A DNA stretch of 63,808 nt, the filler included, from Collodictyon triciliatum (taxonomy: Eukaryota), in NCBI GenBank assembly GCA_043381765.1. It is 5 parts of 5 records of this genome, joined end to end, with 100 filler letters (N's around TTAATTAATTAA, not from the genome) between each part and the next. Parts side by side here need not be neighbours in the genome. Positions count along the whole stretch, not along the records: positions 39,907 to 53,086 come from JBHJMP010002030.1; 4 more parts are not named here. One strand, 5' to 3'. Position 1 is the first letter of the stretch. Each line of letters opens with the position of its first letter. This document shows, one piece after another, positions 5,921 to 53,186 of the stretch. Position numbers and translations under genes: made by a program. The notes below the pieces were generated by a model. That model worked only from the letters and a program-made list of their open reading frames with translations. It was not told where the DNA came from and ran no database searches.

Positions 5921-6276
5921 NNNNNNNNNNNNNNNNNNNNNNNNNNNNNNNNNNNNNNNNNNNNNNNNNNNNNNNNNNNNNNNNNNNNNNNNNNNNNNNN
6001 NNNNNNNNNNNNNNNNNNNNNNNNNNNNNNNNNNNNNNNNNNNNNNNNNNNNNNNNNNNNNNNNNNNNNNNNNNNNNNNNNNNNNNNNNNNNNNNNNNNN
6101 NNNNNNNNNNNNNNNNNNNNNNNNNNNNNNNNNNNNNNNNNNNNNNNNNNNNNNNNNNNNNNNNNNNNNNNNNNNNNNNNNNNNNNNNNNNNNNNNNNNN
6201 NNNNNNNNNNNNNNNNNNNNNNNNNNNNNNNNNNNNNNNNNNNNNNNNNNNNNNNNNNNNNNNNNNNNNNNNNNNN
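5921..6276. other. Scaffold gap (356 N, no linker)
   Basis: Run of N without the TTAATTAATTAA linker, so an intra-scaffold gap. Confidence 0.95.
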
Positions 6277-13210: not shown

Positions 13211-13310
13211 NNNNNNNNNNNNNNNNNNNNNNNNNNNNNNNNNNNNNNNNNNNNTTAATTAATTAANNNNNNNNNNNNNNNNNNNNNNNNNNNNNNNNNN
13301 NNNNNNNNNN
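13211..13310. other. Artificial contig spacer (44N-TTAATTAATTAA-44N)
   Basis: Six-frame stop linker, identical at four places. Confidence 0.97.
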
Positions 13311-26509: not shown

Positions 26510-26609
26510 NNNNNNNNNNNNNNNNNNNNNNNNNNNNNNNNNNNNNNNNNNNNTTAATTAATTAANNNNNNNNNNNNNNNNNNNNNNNNNNNNNNNNNNN
26601 NNNNNNNNN
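26510..26609. other. Artificial contig spacer
   Basis: 44N-TTAATTAATTAA-44N. Confidence 0.97.
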
Positions 26610-33538: not shown

Positions 33539-39035
<5,497 letters not shown>

Positions 39036-39806: not shown

Positions 39807-39906
39807 NNNNNNNNNNNNNNNNNNNNNNNNNNNNNNNNNNNNNNNNNNNNTTAATTAATTAANNNNNNNNNNNNNNNNNNNNNNNNNNNNNNNNNNNNNN
39901 NNNNNN
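39807..39906. other. Artificial contig spacer
   Basis: 44N-TTAATTAATTAA-44N. Confidence 0.97.
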
Positions 39907-42835: not shown

Positions 42836-43075
42836 CTGAATGAGGTCCAAAGAGTAATTGCTTCATCAGTCGCAATCGTATCCATGTTTTCATGAGCTCG
42901 TGGGTAATTAATCAAGTGGGGTTTACATTCATAATTATGCTCATGCTCACTCCTTTGCATTCCAATGCCCAGAAATACAATATCTTGAAAATTCAGTTTG
43001 ATGTGTGTCGTGCTTGAAGAATGCTTCAAACTGATTACGCAAACATCTTTTTTGCTCTTTAATGTACGTAATACT

Positions 43076-43170
43076 ATGATGATTATTATGATGATTATTA
43101 TGATGATTATTATGATGATTATTATGATGATTATTATGATGATTATTATGATGATTATTATGATGATTAT
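43076..43170. repeat. (ATGATGATTATT)n minisatellite
   Basis: Visible directly. Confidence 0.95.
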
Positions 43171-43210
43171 CATTATAGTCATTATTATTGGTGAATTATT
43201 ATTTTATCTT

Positions 43211-44045: not shown

Positions 44046-44343
44046 AGCCTGCCGAAACACTATTGCAAAGCACCTGATCCACAGTCACGAGAGCCAGGAG
44101 GACAAACACATAGTAGCTGTTGTTCCAGACACGAGCATGATCCTTGGGCGGTGCAGAGCGGAGCGCGAAGACCTGGGCTGCACATCACTGACATCCCCAT
44201 CACCTGTAGCTTAAGTACCCAGGAAAGAGCAAAAGTCGCCACCAGAGGAGAAAAGAGAAGAAAGGAAGAGAGACAGACAAAGAGACCCGCCCAAGTAGCT
44301 TGTCAATCCTTGCAAGGAGGCCTGTCTGCGCTTCTCTCCCGGG

Positions 44344-47300
44344 ATGTCGTACTTTGATTACACAGTGTTTCGGCCCTGGCCATGGTTCCAGCCCAGCGGG
44401 GACGTGCATCAGGCCACATTCATGGACCTGCGTGAGCGGTGGATCCGAGAGTTGCCCGAGTCCATTGGAGCGCTTCGCCTGCTGAAGTTCCTCAGCCTTG
44501 GCGTGAATAGCGTATGTCCCCCCTAGCTGTGGCCTGCTAGACTCTTTAATTGCGCCCGACTGTTTATTTTTGTTCTTGTATATTATTCTGCTGTCACACG
44601 TATTGTTCATTTGAGCCCATGATCGAGAGGGTTGAGCCTGACCATAGTTGTGCAAAGTGCTCTTGAAGTTGCCTTGACAGAGTCTTTGAGTAGACGCTGT
44701 CGGAGATAACCTCTGCACCGCCTGCAATCATCCATTGCGATTCATACTGATGCTACTTCTGTCATTCCAGCCAAAGAATAAAGGTCGGTCTATTGATCAT
44801 TAATTATCCTCACCCTCTAGATAAGCACACTGCCCGAAACATTCTCACAGCTTCAAGATTTGGAGGAACTCTGGCTCGGCGCAAATGATGATCCACAATA
44901 CTACTATAAAGGTGGAAATCACGTAAGCAACTTACTCTCGTCCATAGGACGGCCTTCCCAAGTGCTTTTTGACCACCTCAACGAGGCCATCCCAGAAAGA
45001 GTTCTCTTTCTGTCTTGTGGGACTGTCGATCAACAAACCAATCACATCCCCACGGTTGTTCAAATCCACCACTAACCTTAGCACTTTTATTCATTCCGTA
45101 CAGTTTTCCGAGTTCCCAACGGTCCTCACAACACTCTCTAACCTTAAACTCCTTGGCTTTGGCAAGAACCAGGTACCCTAAGTCATATGTTCATAGGGCC
45201 TCAGCGGCTCACAGCCAGTTACCCTGCGTGTATTTCTCATAAAGGTTGTCCGCGATCATATTCTCGTTCAAAACTGCTCCTGTATCTCTTCATAGCTCAT
45301 CTCATTTCCACCGGAAATCACCAGAATGAGCAGCCTCACCTTCCTTAGCTTTGGAGACAATCAGGTGATCACTTTGACACTCTGAAGCACACATCTATCT
45401 GTTGTGAATTGAATTCAGTCTTGAATACTCCAGGGCAACCCCCTCTATGAAAAGGTGTCAATTACTGATGAACCACTTGTTCCACACAGATTGAAAATGT
45501 CCCCATCATCCCAAGTCTGCTAGCACTTACCCTCAGCGGCAATAAGGCTTGTGACACCCCTGTTCTTTACGATAGATCCATCTTGTAATGCTTACACGTG
45601 GCGTTCAAGTCAATGAGCATCACATTTAGATTAATTATCCCTCTGATAACAATTACCTTCTGTGACGGAAAAACAATAGATATCCTCCCTTCCAGATGAA
45701 ATCAGTCTTATGACGAACCTAACATATTTGGCATTATCTGGAAACCAGGTGTGTGTCGCACAGTAGTTATTCACAGACATATTGCATATCTTCTTATCTC
45801 GGTTAACTGCTGACATGTCTCACGACCCCTAATCTTCCTTTCCCTGCGCTAGCTTTCTTCCCTGCCGTTAGCCATCAGTAACTTGGTCACGCTCCAGGTC
45901 CTCCAAATCCAGAAGAACAAGGTTTCATCTCATTAACATCCCTTTGAATCGAATAAAGGAAAAAAAATCTCATTAACTTCCCTTCCACAAGCATTCACAA
46001 CCAATAAGACCGTCGAGACCCCTCCCCCTCCTCCCATCATATGCTTGTTTCCCACAGGCTTCTCTAATAAAAGTGCTTCATTGTAATAGTTGTCTTCTAT
46101 CCCAGCGGAATTGACCAGTCTTACCTCTCTCAAATCTTTCGACTGCCAGTCCAATGAACTGCCTGAAGAGGAGGCCAACATATGGACTCACTATAACTTT
46201 GAGCATCAGCAAGTGATCCTCGAAGATCAAGGACTCGTAGAGTTTCCCGTGTATGCCCTACAGCTGAGTCCGGCGTCCATTAATTTATCTCAGAACAACC
46301 TTATCATCACCCAACATGCCCGCCGAAAGACCGAATGGGAATCGAAGTGCAACAGCGACGAACATGAAGTCGAGCCTGAGTCTGCCGAGGGCCGTAAACT
46401 TTACCCCACAGGTCCTTTTTTTTTTTTTCTTCCTTCATCGTAAGCCTGAGGCTATATAATACGAGCCCAAACCTTCATCTATTTGCCAACAAATCCCCAC
46501 ACATCTCACCATTCCAGCTGGCTTATTTTTACGTGTCCAAAGTCACGATAAATAATAATTGCACCCGCGTTTAACTTTCTTCACCCCCTGCAATCTAGTT
46601 TTCCCTCCTCAACTATGCCTCCATACCATGGACATCATCCTAACGGGCAATCCTGCACTACCTGGAATCTTCGCCAAGGAATTCCCCGCTATCATCAGAA
46701 ACGAAGACAATAGTGCATGCGAAAAGGCACTGAAGGCTCTTGCTCTCATCAAGAAATGTCCAAAGTACGACCCCATCCTGGCCCAGATGTATGAAGACTT
46801 TGCCATGGAGGAGCTAGACAAGATGAGTGAAGACCCGTCGCAGGCCCATCTCATCGATGATAGCCTCATCCAACTCGCTGTTGATGCCGATGCTCTCGAC
46901 TTCCTCACTGTGGACACTATTGAAGAGACTATCGAAGAAATGTGGAGTGCTGGCGCCTCGCTGAAGACGTTCCTCTCTGTCGAAAAGCAGAAAGCATCAT
47001 GGTGGTCCGACGGATACTGGGTCGGCATCGGGTATTTCCTTCAGGCCGTCGCCAGTGAATTCCCAAAGTTCACCCGCTCTCCCCAGGGAAAGTATTACTT
47101 GGCTGGAACTATGTACTTTCTCTTTATGATTCTCCTATCCATGTTCTGTTACCAAATGAATACCTCTTTCAACAATCCATCATTTTACTTCACCGACCAA
47201 CTGCGCAACAAATACGCTCCTGATGAGTTGGGTTCTCCAAACGACTTCTGGTCTTACTTCTCTGATACCTTCCTCCCAGCTCTGAACAGCGGAGTCGAAA

Positions 47301-50300
47301 GCAGAGACTTGGTGACACCAGAGGGTCAGTACAAAGCATCGTTCTCCTATTATCGCCAAGTAGGCAACCTCCGAATCCGGCAGTTGAGGTCGGTTATGGA
47401 GCTATGCAGGGAATTGGAACCGAAGAATGACAATCCGGACCTAATAGACTCTCATCCTCGTCCCTACTGCGTCCGTCCGTTTGGGCCGATTGACGAAGAT
47501 ACTGGCTCTTTCGGCCCGAAAAGAGAGTATACGTGGATTTCGACGTTAGACTCAAAGGGATATCCTCTATTTGGCCAACTCCGCATATTCTATCCAGGGA
47601 GCGGATTTGTACAGTATTTCTCCCAAAACACCACGGACCAAGAGTCCAAAGTCAAGGAGCTACAAAATAATTTCTGGATTGATCTGCAGACCAGAGCAGT
47701 CGTGTTGGAATTCCTCATCGCCAGTGATAATTTGGACCTCTTGAGCTCAGTATCGATACTATTCGAATTCCCGGTCTCTGGGGGCGTCTTTGCAACCACA
47801 AAGATCCACACGATGCCCCGACTCGCTATGTCTGAGAACCGAGCGAGTGTTAGCGCCATCTCTGTGTTCCTGATGATCTTTGCGATCGGATACTTTTTGC
47901 ACGAATTTACTGTATTCATGAAGGATGGCCCTGAAGAGTACTTTAGCGAAATCTGGAACAAGTTTGATGTTACCCTGATCATCTTACTATTTATAGTACT
48001 TGGATTTCAGTATCGTATCACTGACCTGAATGCACCATACAACGTTCCTGGGGCAGAAGACTCACTCTTTGCTAGTTTCAAAGAGATATCCAACTTATGG
48101 GCATATCAGCGGGAGTTTCTTGCAGTTCTTGTTTTCATGGCCTGGATTCGTCTGCTTTACTTTTTCAGTATTCATGAGTATCTCGGACCCATGCTGCTTA
48201 TTGTCGGTGCGATGACATTCAATATCGTTCAGTTCCTGATTTTGTTGCTTGTGTTCCTGCTGGCGTTCGGAGGCTCAACTTATGTCTTGTACGCGACGGT
48301 TCTGGAAGGATATTCTACGCCTCTAGACACAGCTTTCTCGATAGGAAACTTTTTGTTCGGTAACTTCGATTTTGATGCCATGAATGACGAGGATAACGTG
48401 CTAGGTCCCATATTGTTCTTTACGTTCCTAATTCTCTGCATTATATTGCTGATGAACTTCCTTATCGCCATCCTCAGTGGAACCTATGAAGAGATCCAAA
48501 ATATCTCAGAGAAAAAGTATGTTAAGCTGATGGCTGAAACTCTTCTATCTGCCATGAACTCACCAGCGCCGCCACCGACTAATCTTTTGACGTACATTGC
48601 TCCCATATTTGGTCTGGTTCTATGGATTGTTCCCTACTTCCGTCCCATCACGCTTTTCGTCCGCGAATGGGTAGAAAACGCGTGGGCTGAACGCTGCATC
48701 CAATGGTACTATATTTGGATCGACAATCACATGGAGAGAAAACTATGGAGCCAGTGGCCAAAATATGAGTCAAATGTTTTCCTGATATACCGTGACCTCT
48801 ATGACGGACCCGAAGATAAGAAATGGACCAGATTTACCGATCATTTTGTCTATGGACTGAGTTGGTTCATCTCATCCTGCTTCACAGTTATCTTCAAATT
48901 CTTTATGTCGCCGATTGCATTCATACTGCGCCGTAGTAAGAAATATTTGAAGCATCGCAATGGGGTTTATGATGTCATCGAAGTCGTAACAAGGAAGAAG
49001 AAATCTCAAGACGGCGGTGAAGAAGAGGAAGAAGATGACGACGATGACGACGAAGAGGACCATCCAATCTTCGAATTGGACAAGTACTTTAGACGATTCA
49101 CGGTGCGGTTGATCTGGGTCTCTACGACACTTCTTTGGATTACCTTCTTCTTTGGGCGATTCTACAAGGTATTTAGCCTTATGCCTGTCTTTTTTTTTTT
49201 TTAACGTCACACTCATGTTCCACCTGGGCCGTTCGATGCACATACCAGATACTCTACTTTCAATTAGCAACCCGAAACCAGGACATACTAATTCACCACC
49301 ATTTTTTTAAATTACTTATACAGAGACGCTATTCCAAGAAAGGTACGCACTGTCCAGTTTAACACTTGCCGGTTTCTCCTGAGAACTTCTGATTATTTTT
49401 TGTTATGAAAAACAAAGAAAATCATTTGCCGTGATGACCGATTGACCAATTTAAACTTACAACGACACTTATCTGTAGACGACGAGCACAAGGATATCCG
49501 CATTAACATCGAAGGCGAACACAGCATCAAGGAAATCAAGCAGGACAACATCTTGATTCACCAAGGAGAGCGAGGCTCTGTGGTCACCCTAAAATCTCCC
49601 GTTCCCATCGATAAGGAGAGAAATTTCAACTACTTTGAAGTTGAGATTATCAATCCAGGAGAGGGTGTTTATGTGGGTCTTTGCAGTGGCGAATATCCGA
49701 AAGATAATCGTCTTGGCATGCAATCCGGGTCCATCTCTTACTTTTCCAAGAGTGGAGAGGTAAACATCGACTGGAGATTGCGCCGTGCCGCATACAAGCA
49801 AATGGCTCCCTTCCACTATCCCAGCGCGGTCATCGGTTGTGGCATTGACCCCAACTACAGCCAAATCTACTTCTCGGTGAACGGAAAGTTCGGCTCTGAG
49901 AACATTTCCCAAGACACGGTGCTCAAGGGTGCACTCTACCCGGCCATCACTCTGACTCGGGGCGCTTCTGTGCGTGTGAACTTTGGATCCGAGCGGTTCC
50001 GCCTGTTCTACACACCCCCAACCCCAGAGTCGGGCTTCTCATGGCTTGAGGTATCCGAGACGGTCTATACTCATCCGAACCTGGAGGCACTGACCCTGTT
50101 CAGCACAGAGCATGAGCTCGGACAGCTGGTTGAGTCTCGTATCTTTGGAAACACGTTCCTCTCTCTTAGGTCATTGCCATACATGGACATTAACATCTAC
50201 AACCGGGGATTCCATGACGCACCAGTGCTGCAGGTTGGATTCATGGCGCTCAAATACCCTGTCAAGAATCCGGAATGGTTCGAAGATTACACCCCGTCCT

Positions 50301-50952
50301 TGGTTGCCAAAGTGTACGAGGACCACATCGAATACGGCGGTAGACTGCTGCTCGGGTAAGGATTTGCCACGCTCGCTCGCTTCCCCGCCCAATCAAACAC
50401 GCACACACCCACACCGATGCATACATATGTATACGCCTTTTGTCTCCTCGAATATATTCCTGCCTCTCCCATGGCGCAAACGGTGAGCAAAAGAAAGATT
50501 TCCTGTCCACGAACGAACGAACGAACGAACCAACTAACCCAACCCCATGCAGTTCGGACGAAGAGGACGAGTCCAAGACAATCACCATCAAGCACACCGG
50601 GGCTTTCACAAACTTTGCGTTCCACCTGCGCTCGCTCCACAACGAACAGGAACTGTGTCTGGTGATCGACCACTCCATCGTCCACCGCATCAAGCTTGGC
50701 ACGCGGCCCGTCTACCTCTACCCGGACGTTGTCCTGCGCCACCCCACGCAGCTCATCACCGTCCGCTTCCCCACTGAGTTCACCCTCAACCACGACTTCA
50801 CCACCACCGGGCCCGAAGGCATCCAGATGGTTCCGCTCACCGAGCCGCCGTCTGCCGAAATCAAGCGTGACACTGGTGCCGGTGCCTCCTCTTCTGTGGA
50901 GGAAGGCGGAAGCGATGAGCAGGAGGGCGAGGAATCAAAGACCCTCATCTAA
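44344..50952 (+). CDS. LRR - TRP/polycystin-2-type cation channel - SPRY fusion protein (about 1596 aa, 12 exons)
   Basis: Exons 44344-44511, 44821-44922, 45104-45172, 45296-45364, 45490-45546, 45680-45748, 45853-45921, 46090-46411, 46599-49168, 49324-49342, 49479-50355, 50553-50952 total 4791 nt in one frame. Motifs: LxxLPxxIxxLxxLxxLxLxxN repeats; PKD2 motifs RIRQLR, YPGSGF, WIDLQTRAVVLEF, FEFPVSGG, LGPILFFTF..LLMNFLIAIL; SPRY YFEVEI..VGL..IGCGID..IYFSVNG..LYPAITL..VRVNFG. Confidence 0.85.
45938..45966 (+). mobile_element. Retroposon 3' fragment, copy C, in LRR intron 7
   Basis: ATCCCTTTGAATCGAATAAAGGAAAAAAA flanked by ATCTCATTAAC at 45927-45937 and 45967-45977. Confidence 0.8.
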
Positions 50953-52000
50953 GGCTCTCGCCCTGATGGAACGGCGCCACCCCAGAAAACAAACAAGGAA
51001 CAAAAAAAAACAAAAAAAAACAAAAAAAAAACACAAAAAAACGCATTGGCAAGCAGGCACGTACCGCCTATCCCCTTATGAAATCAACCCAACCTACTCC
51101 CACGAGCTGGCAGGTTGCCAAAACAAAACAAAACAAAATCAAAAAAAAAAGCAAAAAAAACGAACATGAATGAAAAGCGAATCAAGGACAAGGACAAAAG
51201 ATAATCAAATTAGGGTGGCGCCAAATCCAACAGAATAAACCGACAAAAAAACAAAAACAAACTTAGCATAAGTCAAAGTGCTGTAGGAACAACGAATATC
51301 CTGTGGAATCTCCTTATCCATTAATCTATGCCCTGGTATGGAAACAGATGGAGGTATTTGTTTGTTGCCTTTCGTTGCGGGCGTTTGAAAGGCGGAAATA
51401 TGGCAAAATGCGAGGCGCGGCAGTGATTGCGTGGGAAATCATGGACGGTGCAGCGCTAAACGATCAAACCGCCCTTGCACGGCCGACGAGGCCCTATCTC
51501 TTCTTCCTGTGGCACTCGTTTTTATTTTATTTCTATTTGTCTCATTCCTTTGCTTTCTACTATGTTCTACAGCCACATCCACACAAGTCTCGTTTTCTTT
51601 TCTTTTACTTCTTTTCATCTTGTTTCTTTTACAATCACTTTTTCTTCTTTATCTTCTTTTCTTCCTTTCTCTTTTCTATTACTTCTACTTTTACTTTACG
51701 TCTTGTTTCTTTTACAATTACTTTTCTCCTTTTCTCCTTTTCTCCTTTTCTCCTTTTTCTTCTTTCTTGTTTTCTTCTTTTTCCTTGTTTGTTGTTTGTT
51801 GTTTGTTGTTTCTTCTTTTCATGGGCGCCCGAAGGCTACTGTCCAAGCACGGGCTGGTTTGCTAAGTTGCTAGCTTATGGCGGTACTGCCCACTCACACG
51901 ACTAGGAAGGCGGAAGAGTAAGAACAACAACAACAACAACAAGAAGAGAGTATCAGAACAAACATCCAGACAAGCCTGCGTTCCGCTCAAGAGAGGAAGG

Positions 52001-52995
52001 ATGTTCCGGTTCCAAGGTAATTTGAAGAAGAAAGGTCTGCCGATTGAGAGCAAGACCTGGGAGATCGAATACCAGGACTTGGAGTTTCTCAAGACCCTGG
52101 GAAAGGGGTCCTTCGGAACAGTCTTTCACGTTAGTTTCATGATACTTATTTATGCAGTGTGTAATTGTAGATACATTTTCCTTCTTTTTCTCTTATTCTT
52201 TATATCGAGCTGTTGGAAATTCATTTGACTTATCCATCTACCTCGATTATCGTCACCCTTATTTATTTTTTATCATCGTATTTTTTTTAAATGATCACTG
52301 AATAGTTTGAAAGTACTGCATTCAATACAAACCATATGTTCGTGTCTATTCACACATAATGAACAAAATAATAATAATGAATAAATAAATACACACGCAA
52401 ATGTATATATGACACATATAACACAGACTCAGATTCACCCACATCCGTTATTTTACGTAAAAGATTCAGCTCTATGATTGATAAAAAAAACTTTGATGTA
52501 TGCGTGTCTTAGGGAATGTACTTTGGGACGGACGTAGCCATCAAGCAGATCAATGATGATGATGAAAAATATCTCGAGCGAGAAGTCGCCATCCTGAAGT
52601 AACGCATTTCGACTGTTCAGAATGTGCCAATTTTTCCAATAGTTTTCAATATTTGGGGAAAAAAATAAGATATTAATCCTGTAGAAATTCCTTTTTGTTC
52701 TCGGTGAGAACATATTCAAATCGACACTCTTTGATGACAATATGCTTCCTTTTCTTGCAGGGACATCCGGCACCCCAACATCGTTCAATTAATGGGGATT
52801 TGCGAGCACCAAACAGGATTGTATCTTGTTACAGAGCTACTGAATGGAGGAACCCTTCGCAAGAAGCTAAAGAATAAAGCGGTGGAGATGGGATGGTCCT
52901 TGAGGCTCGATGTGACCATCCAAATGGCCCGAGCTTTGACCTACCTACACTCAAAAGCCATTATCCATCGTGACCTCAAATCAAAGAACGTTCTC
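52001..52995 (+). CDS. Tyrosine-kinase-like (TKL, possibly LISK/TESK-like) protein kinase, 3' truncated by contig end
   Basis: WEIEYQDLEFLKTLGKGSFGTV, VAIKQI, EREVAILKDIRHPNIVQLMG, YLHSKAIIHRDLKSKNVL. Confidence 0.9.
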
Positions 52996-53086: not shown

Positions 53087-53186
53087 NNNNNNNNNNNNNN
53101 NNNNNNNNNNNNNNNNNNNNNNNNNNNNNNTTAATTAATTAANNNNNNNNNNNNNNNNNNNNNNNNNNNNNNNNNNNNNNNNNNNN
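53087..53186. other. Artificial contig spacer
   Basis: 44N-TTAATTAATTAA-44N, preceded by (TC)n. Confidence 0.97.

Follow-up and report, generated by a model that had tools for sequence, protein, structure and literature searches.

TRPP channels are ancient ciliary sensors whose gating is poorly understood, and in animals they are regulated either through short tails with EF hands and coiled coils or through PKD1 as a separate partner. A locus of the freshwater protist Collodictyon triciliatum raises the question of whether such a channel can be built, in a single polypeptide, with large protein-recognition modules at both ends, and what those modules would do there. The locus occupies positions 44344-50952 (+ strand) of a stretch of 63,808 nucleotides (nt), filler included, which joins five parts of GenBank assembly GCA_043381765.1 and is referred to below as the window. 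A first-pass annotation of this DNA had read in it a leucine-rich repeat (LRR) sensor, a polycystin-type channel and a SPRY domain joined in one gene. The analysis reported here indicates that the three parts very probably do form one real gene, and that a TRPP-type channel subunit, lineage-specific and scaffolded, in which LRRs and SPRY act as binding platforms, is a moderately likely account of its product.

Two long stop-to-stop open reading frames (ORFs) mark the locus on the + strand, 46559-49204 (881 amino acids, aa) and 49409-50359 (316 aa), with a row of short frames upstream of them. Exons assembled by script from a reading of the DNA give a 12-exon model with a single open frame, namely a coding sequence of 4791 nt, or 1596 codons plus TAA (Table 1). 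The introns have GT-AG borders in 10 of 11 cases, and a GC donor (AAG/gcttgt) opens the one after 45546. Each of exons 3-7 encodes one leucine-rich repeat in phase 0. The junctions at 46411/46599 and 49168/49324/49479 keep the frame, including a 19-nt mini-exon at 49324-49342. Introns between the LRR, channel and SPRY parts measure 136-197 nt and therefore leave no room for separate genes. Furthermore, the LRR and channel parts are physically linked in one exon, because the large channel exon 9 opens with the codons of the final LRR (FPPQLCLHTMDIILTGNPALPG). An alternative splice for exons 5/6, using a GT donor 4 nt downstream and an acceptor at 45696, is also in frame; it was rejected because it destroys the LRR register and loses the segment ISSLPDEIS that aligns with the closest relative described below. 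Antisense ORFs at 50287-50934 and 44200-44727 returned no Pfam family and are taken as spurious, and a tblastn search with the spliced model found no second polycystin copy in the window.

Support for the fusion comes from a related organism. The 856-aa channel exon was searched exhaustively with phmmer against 1.84 billion representative proteins, and 4272 hits had an E-value of 0.001 or lower. The first eight stand apart from the rest and are all ORFs of Diphylleia rotans Trinity transcripts (EukProt), the ninth being a firefly protein. The best match, P0001, comes from a single D. rotans Trinity transcript, whose ORF of 1596 aa is flagged complete. It aligns with the window model from the N-terminus MSYFDYT to the C-terminus, with 932 identities in 1543 aligned columns (60%), and the alignment is unbroken across the LRR/channel junction (EGRKLYPT/x/FPPQLCL), the mini-exon (FYKRR) and the last intron. 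Pfam finds LRR, Polycystin_dom, PKD_channel and SPRY in P0001, which is the probable orthologue of the window gene. The single spliced frame and the two sets of junctions proposed in the first-pass annotation are both borne out by the 1596-aa model and by this collinear transcript ORF. Part of the stretch is contained in 20 of 21 sequencing runs, 18 of them RNA (lake or freshwater metatranscriptomes); the best shares, 0.43, 0.30 and 0.26, are uninformative on expression, junctions or habitat.

The central module is assigned by several methods. Pfam, run on the ORFs of the window with curated gathering cutoffs, recognizes Polycystin_dom (PF20519; 85.2 bits vs a cutoff of 23.6) between S1 and S2 and PKD_channel (PF08016; 89.8 bits vs 22.4) over the six-transmembrane (six-TM) region. 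A phmmer search of the PDB aligns the core with human PKD2 from S1 to S6 (E 3.9e-40). The AlphaFold2 (AF2) model of the channel region, built on a 65-sequence alignment, reaches a mean predicted local distance difference test score (pLDDT) of 82 and a predicted template modelling score (pTM) of 0.75, and places a beta-rich domain at exon residues ~250-406. Its top Foldseek structures are PKD2 and PKD2L1, with template modelling scores of 0.80-0.83 normalised to target (PKD2 6t9n_A, E 4e-22, 0.82 normalised to target). The pore helix, filter and S6 are well conserved.

Within this conserved pore one residue stands out. Codon 48362-48364 encodes Asn at the position of the Asp in human PKD2 L-G-D, so that the filter reads F-G-N-F-D-F, vs L-G-D-I-N-F in PKD2 and L-G-D-F-D-F in most relatives among the 65 aligned sequences. 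The acidic residue is absent from the first filter position, and the second Asp (FDF) is retained. This Asn is common to the window protein and P0001; the paralogs have GD, GE or AD, with FGD or FGE kept in P0003, P0004, P0005 and P0154. An acidic first position is typical of TRPP channels and not defining, and paralogs of the same clade vary in it. The substitution suggests an altered cation selectivity in the orthologue pair, probably with a lower preference for Ca2+.

On the N-terminal side, 8-10 tandem repeats of 19-34 aa and of the LxxLxLxxNxL type are visible, giving ~9-10 LRRs in the spliced model. The LRR exons of the window are singly too short for Pfam (LRR_14 0.0031, below cutoff); the LRRs of the collinear P0001 are recognized (LRR_14 4.3e-16, LRR_8 4.4e-12). 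In PDB sequence searches the LRR part of P0001 matches LRRD1 (3e-51) and SHOC2 (1e-42), as well as Leptospira LRR proteins, LRRC8 (LRRC8A, LRRC8D) and RSU1, and these repeats look most like the cytosolic scaffold subtype represented by SHOC2 and LRRD1. There is no evident signal peptide: in the first 30 windows the Kyte-Doolittle 19-mer score peaks at -0.13. The LRRs are most likely cytosolic, because they precede S1 without a signal peptide. Between them and S1 lie ~140 residues confidently predicted to be all-helical. This pre-S1 domain has no Pfam family; phmmer matched it in 9 of 160 collected proteins, all from D. rotans, and its best score in a protein atlas search, 0.79, is at an uninformative level.

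The C-terminal side is more elaborate than a channel followed by one domain. Neither the 216-aa extension after S6 nor the last exon has a Pfam family, and hence no EF-hand or coiled coil is found by Pfam in the extension. Hydrophobicity scans mark additional segments in it (Table 1), and a hydrophobic helix just before SPRY domain 1 is kept in the window protein, P0001, P0002, P0003 and P0005. Apparent insertion scores for this helix are 1.35 to -0.15 in four of the proteins and 2.32 in P0005, comparable with those of the weaker canonical S1-S6 helices of the same proteins. SPRY domain 1 has SPRYSEC-15 (a secreted nematode SPRY protein), SPRYD3 and RanBP9/10 as its best PDB relatives, with a weak sequence match to SPRY2 of RyR1. 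With an E limit of 0.1, Pfam assigns nothing but SPRY to the 316-aa ORF, no PRY segment being found, and none of the 38 PDB sequence matches of the domain is a TRIM or pyrin protein. By these matches the domain is closest to the SPRYD3/RanBP9/10/RyR type and not to B30.2 (TRIM/pyrin). The region that follows is probably a second, divergent SPRY-like domain: ~215 residues after SPRY 1 align with a second Pfam SPRY stretch of paralog P0002 and show a YxxxxxxxG...VGF motif. In the protein atlas they resemble SPRY/Neuralized look-alikes (score 0.93, a lead only). The AF2 model of the orthologue tail contains two beta domains, and its best Foldseek matches are the SPRY regions of RyR1, RyR2 and RyR3, over ~400-430 alignment columns. 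An hhalign comparison of the C-terminal domain with SPRY 1 gave a probability of 0.5% and lends no sequence-level support to a second SPRY.

Several elements of the first-pass annotation are upheld by these results, namely the polycystin-2-like nature of the channel (Pfam PF08016/PF20519, phmmer to PKD2, Foldseek to 6t9n), the missing signal peptide and the probable cytosolic placement of the LRRs. Others needed amendment. The LRRs are present, and their number, given as 8-9, is about 9-10, two of which are absent from the orthologue. The six-TM core and the C-terminal SPRY are likewise present, and that description was incomplete, as it omitted three extra hydrophobic helices and the second SPRY-like domain.

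The architecture is shared by a family. By Pfam, all six of P0001-P0006 contain LRR, Polycystin_dom and PKD_channel and four of the six SPRY. A family SPRY profile matches 7 of 172 collected proteins, corresponding to five genes, all of D. rotans and including P0004/P0152 at ~5e-13. At least five D. rotans genes combine LRR, channel and SPRY. Over the 856 residues of the channel exon the paralogs reach only ~32% identity, and they vary in how many LRRs they have and in their filter residues. In a quick IQ-TREE tree of the S1-S6 core (65 rows) the window protein pairs with P0001 (Shimodaira-Hasegawa-like approximate likelihood ratio test, SH-aLRT, 99), and nine diphylleid rows form one group (SH-aLRT 99) adjoining two metagenomic proteins, P0012 (ankyrin and channel) and P0034. 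Judged from these comparisons, the gene belongs to a diphylleid-specific expansion of LRR/SPRY polycystin channels. Among the relatives examined for architecture (the best 150 of the 4272 hits and their cluster members), the combination of LRR, channel and SPRY was seen only in diphylleids. Two word-index searches are weak negatives: the SPRY exon with a longer-protein setting gave 0 of 1960 candidates scored, and residues 1137-1545 of P0001 retrieved only P0001 itself among 8000 scored candidates.

Other N-terminal scaffolds occur on polycystin-2-like cores, such as WD40 propellers in P0026 (the amoebozoan Cavostelium apophysatum), ankyrin repeats in P0012 (metagenome) and LRR plus ankyrin in P0028 (metagenome); the family SPRY profile found no SPRY in these three. 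The quick tree places P0028 apart from the diphylleid clade, and its LRR fusion therefore looks independent. The LRR-polycystin fusion has probably arisen more than once, and the series of LRR, ankyrin and WD40 scaffolds suggests that protists repeatedly fit different repeat scaffolds to polycystin cores as a recurrent design.

The explanation that we favour brings these features together as follows. The gene of this diphylleid-like (CRuMs) protist would encode one subunit of a polycystin-2 (TRPP)-type cation channel, presumably tetrameric, in which the conserved S1-TOP-S2-S6 core has been extended in both directions. On the N-terminal, cytosolic side, the helical domain peculiar to the family would connect a SHOC2/LRRD1-type LRR solenoid to S1; past S6, the chain would run through conserved hydrophobic helices into two SPRY beta-sandwich domains. 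The pore would conduct cations as PKD2 does, and the filter Asn may change its selectivity or make the orthologue a modulatory subunit. The LRR and SPRY modules would be platforms to which other proteins bind, and would in this way anchor the channel, determine its place in the cell or regulate it allosterically. Precedents are LRRC8 channels, with their cytosolic LRRs, and ryanodine receptors, with their SPRY domains; the two modules are probably not immune sensors of the NLR/TRIM style.

A number of observations weigh against this explanation or against the gene model beneath it. Transcript-level support for the fusion comes from the relative D. rotans and not from RNA of C. triciliatum. A scan of metagenome contigs with the channel exon gave 578 pattern stretches, none confirmed by tblastn, and an exact search of such contigs for the 19-nt mini-exon gave three loci, all chance matches with unrelated flanks. 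Exons 4 and 5 are exactly the 42 aa gapped in P0001, and exon 5 has the GC donor; both may be skipped as cassette exons or represent a lineage-specific gain of repeats, with the frame kept either way. Behind S6 the AF2 confidence falls to pLDDT 50-70, and hydrophobicity scans allow one to three extra membrane segments, so that the SPRY tail may lie on either side of the membrane. The call of a second SPRY depends in part on a low-confidence tail model (pLDDT 65), and the tree is a quick version rather than a careful search. The filter Asn could instead mean a poorly conducting or regulatory subunit.

The side of the membrane on which the tail lies bears on a rather unlikely alternative, in which the protein would be a doubly tethered mechanosensor of the cilium or feeding groove: the LRRs would be tied to the axoneme or cytoskeleton, the two SPRY domains, facing outward, would bind an extracellular structure or prey surface, and force between the two anchors would gate the pore. 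The conserved hydrophobic helix immediately before SPRY 1, with insertion scores like those of weaker S1-S6 helices, could carry the tail across the membrane, and SPRYSEC-15, to which the SPRY domain is closest in the PDB, is secreted. Double attachment of a polycystin also has a parallel, since Chlamydomonas PKD2 is reported to be attached to axonemal microtubules and to extracellular mastigonemes (PMC7265326). However, SPRY domains are overwhelmingly intracellular, and the two further hydrophobic segments could make the number of crossings even. Nor does the positive-inside rule settle where the tail lies, as K/R-rich stretches are found both before and after the last helix. Less probable again is the specific two-sided tether in which cytosolic LRRs are anchored to the flagellar or cytoskeletal apparatus, the extra helix carries the tandem SPRY to the cell surface, and prey contact or flow pulls the gate; if true, no earlier ion channel would be known to turn a SPRY module towards the outside of the cell, and a deep-branching predatory flagellate would possess a mechanosensory or contact-sensing device complete in itself. 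The same ambiguity touches the proposal of the first-pass annotation that the channel is gated by a cytosolic ligand, which assumes a cytosolic SPRY tail, a placement made uncertain by the conserved hydrophobic helix just before SPRY and the two weaker ones upstream of it. Its other suggestion, a ciliary sensory channel, is neither favoured nor contradicted by these results.

That annotation had also drawn an analogy with NLR, TRIM and pyrin proteins, which would make the gene product an innate-immunity-like receptor whose cytosolic LRRs and SPRY bind a pathogen or danger ligand and open the pore directly. Both modules are indeed recognition modules in some immune proteins, and D. rotans has at least six paralogous genes whose LRR and SPRY parts are very divergent (below the ~32% identity of the channel region), a pattern compatible with diversifying recognition. 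But Pfam detected none of the domains NACHT, NB-ARC, PRY, death, TIR and CARD, either in the ORFs of the window or in P0001-P0006, both modules are of subtypes that go with scaffold proteins and not with NLR or TRIM, and the LRRs are well conserved between the window protein and P0001; the analogy does not hold up, and we regard an immune receptor as improbable. We give similarly little credence to a subunit that is non-conducting or modulatory, in which the filter Asn would mark a PKD1-like partner that co-assembles with filter-competent paralogs and lends its LRR and SPRY platforms to the heteromer. FGN in the orthologue pair vs FGD or FGE in four paralogs fits such a division of labour, as do the heteromeric 1:3 PKD1/PKD2 complexes present among the PDB matches; yet the second acidic position, the pore helix, the rest of the filter and S6 are well conserved, and Asn at this site would not by itself be expected to abolish conduction. 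As for an artefact, by which separate neighbouring LRR, channel and SPRY genes or an assembly chimera would underlie the gene model, it is very improbable in view of the short inter-module introns with every junction in frame, the LRR split across the 46411/46599 junction and the single D. rotans transcript with the same module order and the same junction sequences.

The features of the favoured model, one gene for a scaffolded TRPP-type subunit, are collected in Table 1.

Table 1. Exons and predicted protein features of the LRR-polycystin-SPRY gene, in window coordinates
Feature	Position	Strand	Basis
Exon 1: start codon, N-terminal cap, first LRR, aa 1-56	44344..44511	+	N-terminus MSYFDYT identical in P0001
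Exon 2: LRR with loop insertion, aa 57-90	44821..44922	+	AG/GT sites, phase 0, collinear with P0001
Exon 3: single 23-aa LRR, aa 91-113	45104..45172	+	Splice model, P0001 alignment
Exon 4: single 23-aa LRR, aa 114-136, inclusion uncertain	45296..45364	+	Canonical splice sites, in frame; without P0001 counterpart
Exon 5: single 19-aa LRR, aa 137-155, inclusion uncertain	45490..45546	+	Donor AAG/gcttgt (GC); without P0001 counterpart
Exon 6: single 23-aa LRR, aa 156-178	45680..45748	+	ISSLPDEIS aligns with LEKIPDSIS of P0001
Exon 7: single 23-aa LRR, aa 179-201	45853..45921	+	Splice model, P0001 alignment
Exon 8: two more LRRs and charged insertion, aa 202-308	46090..46411	+	Junction EGRKLYPT kept in P0001
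Exon 9 (2570 nt): last LRR, pre-S1 helical domain, S1, polycystin domain, S2-S6 pore, post-S6 extension with three hydrophobic helices, aa 309-1165	46599..49168	+	Pfam, phmmer, AF2, Foldseek
Pre-S1 all-helical, predicted cytosolic domain, diphylleid-family specific	46660..47080	+	AF2 pLDDT mostly >90; phmmer
Polycystin (TOP) domain between S1 and S2	47234..47815	+	Pfam PF20519, 5.9e-24; beta-rich in AF2 model
PKD_channel region S2-S6	47846..48496	+	Pfam PF08016, 2.4e-25; human PKD2 alignment
Selectivity-filter stretch F-G-N-F-D-F	48356..48373	+	HMMER alignment to PKD2; column view of 65 sequences
Extra hydrophobic segment 1 after S6, aa 971-996	48584..48661	+	Hydrophobicity scan; in AF2 two short helices broken at proline
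Extra hydrophobic segment 2, aa 1066-1084	48869..48925	+	Hydrophobicity scan; weak here, stronger in paralogs P0002 and P0005
Extra hydrophobic segment 3, aa 1142-1160, abuts SPRY tail	49097..49153	+	Hydrophobicity scan; kept in paralogs
Exon 10: 19-nt mini-exon (RRYSKK), restores frame between channel and SPRY exons	49324..49342	+	FYKRR kept in P0001
Exon 11: SPRY domain 1 and first half of probable SPRY-like domain 2, aa 1172-1463	49479..50355	+	Pfam, P0001 alignment
SPRY domain 1 (Pfam PF00622)	49631..49990	+	5.2e-14, 52.8 bits vs cutoff 26.3
Probable SPRY-like domain 2, first half	50000..50355	+	Alignment with second Pfam SPRY stretch of P0002; AF2 tail model; atlas lead
Exon 12: second half of probable SPRY-like domain 2 (to ~50841), acidic/Ser-rich tail, TAA stop 50950-50952	50553..50952	+	Splice model, P0001 alignment

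Exons of a P-type cation-transporting ATPase lie at 33689-36979 (- strand; Cation_ATPase_C 7.6e-21, Cation_ATPase 5.5e-05), ~7 kb upstream of the channel gene in window coordinates, and no sign of a functional link was found. Just downstream, the frame 51866-52228 (+) contains a protein-kinase-like glycine loop, LGKGSFGTVF, and probably forms the opening exon of an adjacent kinase gene; Pfam returned no family on this 120-aa fragment. The intergenic DNA upstream, at 43000-43200, is a simple repeat of trinucleotide type, whose long frames read as poly-Ile, (HHNN)n and (YYDD)n. Paired runs of 44 N with 12 bases between them recur every ~13.3 kb (13211-13310, 26510-26609, 39807-39906 and 53087-53186) and, with one gap of 356 N at 5921-6276, N amounts to 708 positions overall; so regular a spacing looks technical, as from masking or scaffolding, and not biological.

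No description of an LRR, PKD_channel and SPRY combination was found by full-text literature searches, although non-open journals or supplements may hold one, and co-mentions of 'polycystin' with a diphylleid term were taken as referring to Polycystinea (radiolarians). To this extent the claim that the architecture is undescribed still stands: the accessory parts appear not to have been described on a TRPP channel, and the D. rotans sequences are already public in EukProt, unannotated. A deep-branching eukaryote lineage would have put two large protein-recognition modules on one pore and then expanded the family, which offers a natural case in which to study the coupling of peripheral scaffolds to the polycystin gate; the practical value is limited for the present.

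Among known systems, the closest in its pore is PKD2/PKD2L1, with which the protein shares S1, the TOP domain and the S2-S6 core by Pfam, phmmer and Foldseek. It differs from them in having FGN where human PKD2 has LGD, in lacking the EF-hand/coiled-coil tail, and in adding LRRs, a helical pre-S1 domain, extra hydrophobic helices and the tandem SPRY. PKD1 resembles it in combining LRRs with a polycystin-type channel-like domain; however, the LRRs of PKD1 follow a signal peptide and lie outside the cell, and PKD1 has 11 TM segments together with GPS and PLAT domains. Pfam found neither GPS nor PLAT in the window ORFs, and PKD1 is only a weak phmmer match (E 3.8e-08). The protist channels P0012, P0026 and P0028 likewise place a cytosolic repeat scaffold before a PKD2-like core, but without SPRY, and the full order of LRR, pre-S1 domain, polycystin channel and SPRY is met in the unannotated D. 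rotans proteins P0001-P0006. Two further parallels are analogies and not memberships. LRRC8 (volume-regulated anion channel, VRAC) proteins join a cytosolic LRR solenoid of similar subtype to a channel, yet they are pannexin-like hexameric anion channels with C-terminal LRRs. Ryanodine receptors are cation channels with SPRY domains in the same polypeptide, and the tail model matches RyR1-3; they belong to an unrelated channel superfamily, differ in size and carry their SPRY domains N-terminal to the pore. After LRRC8 and RyR, the diphylleid gene would be the third case of LRR or SPRY modules built into a channel.

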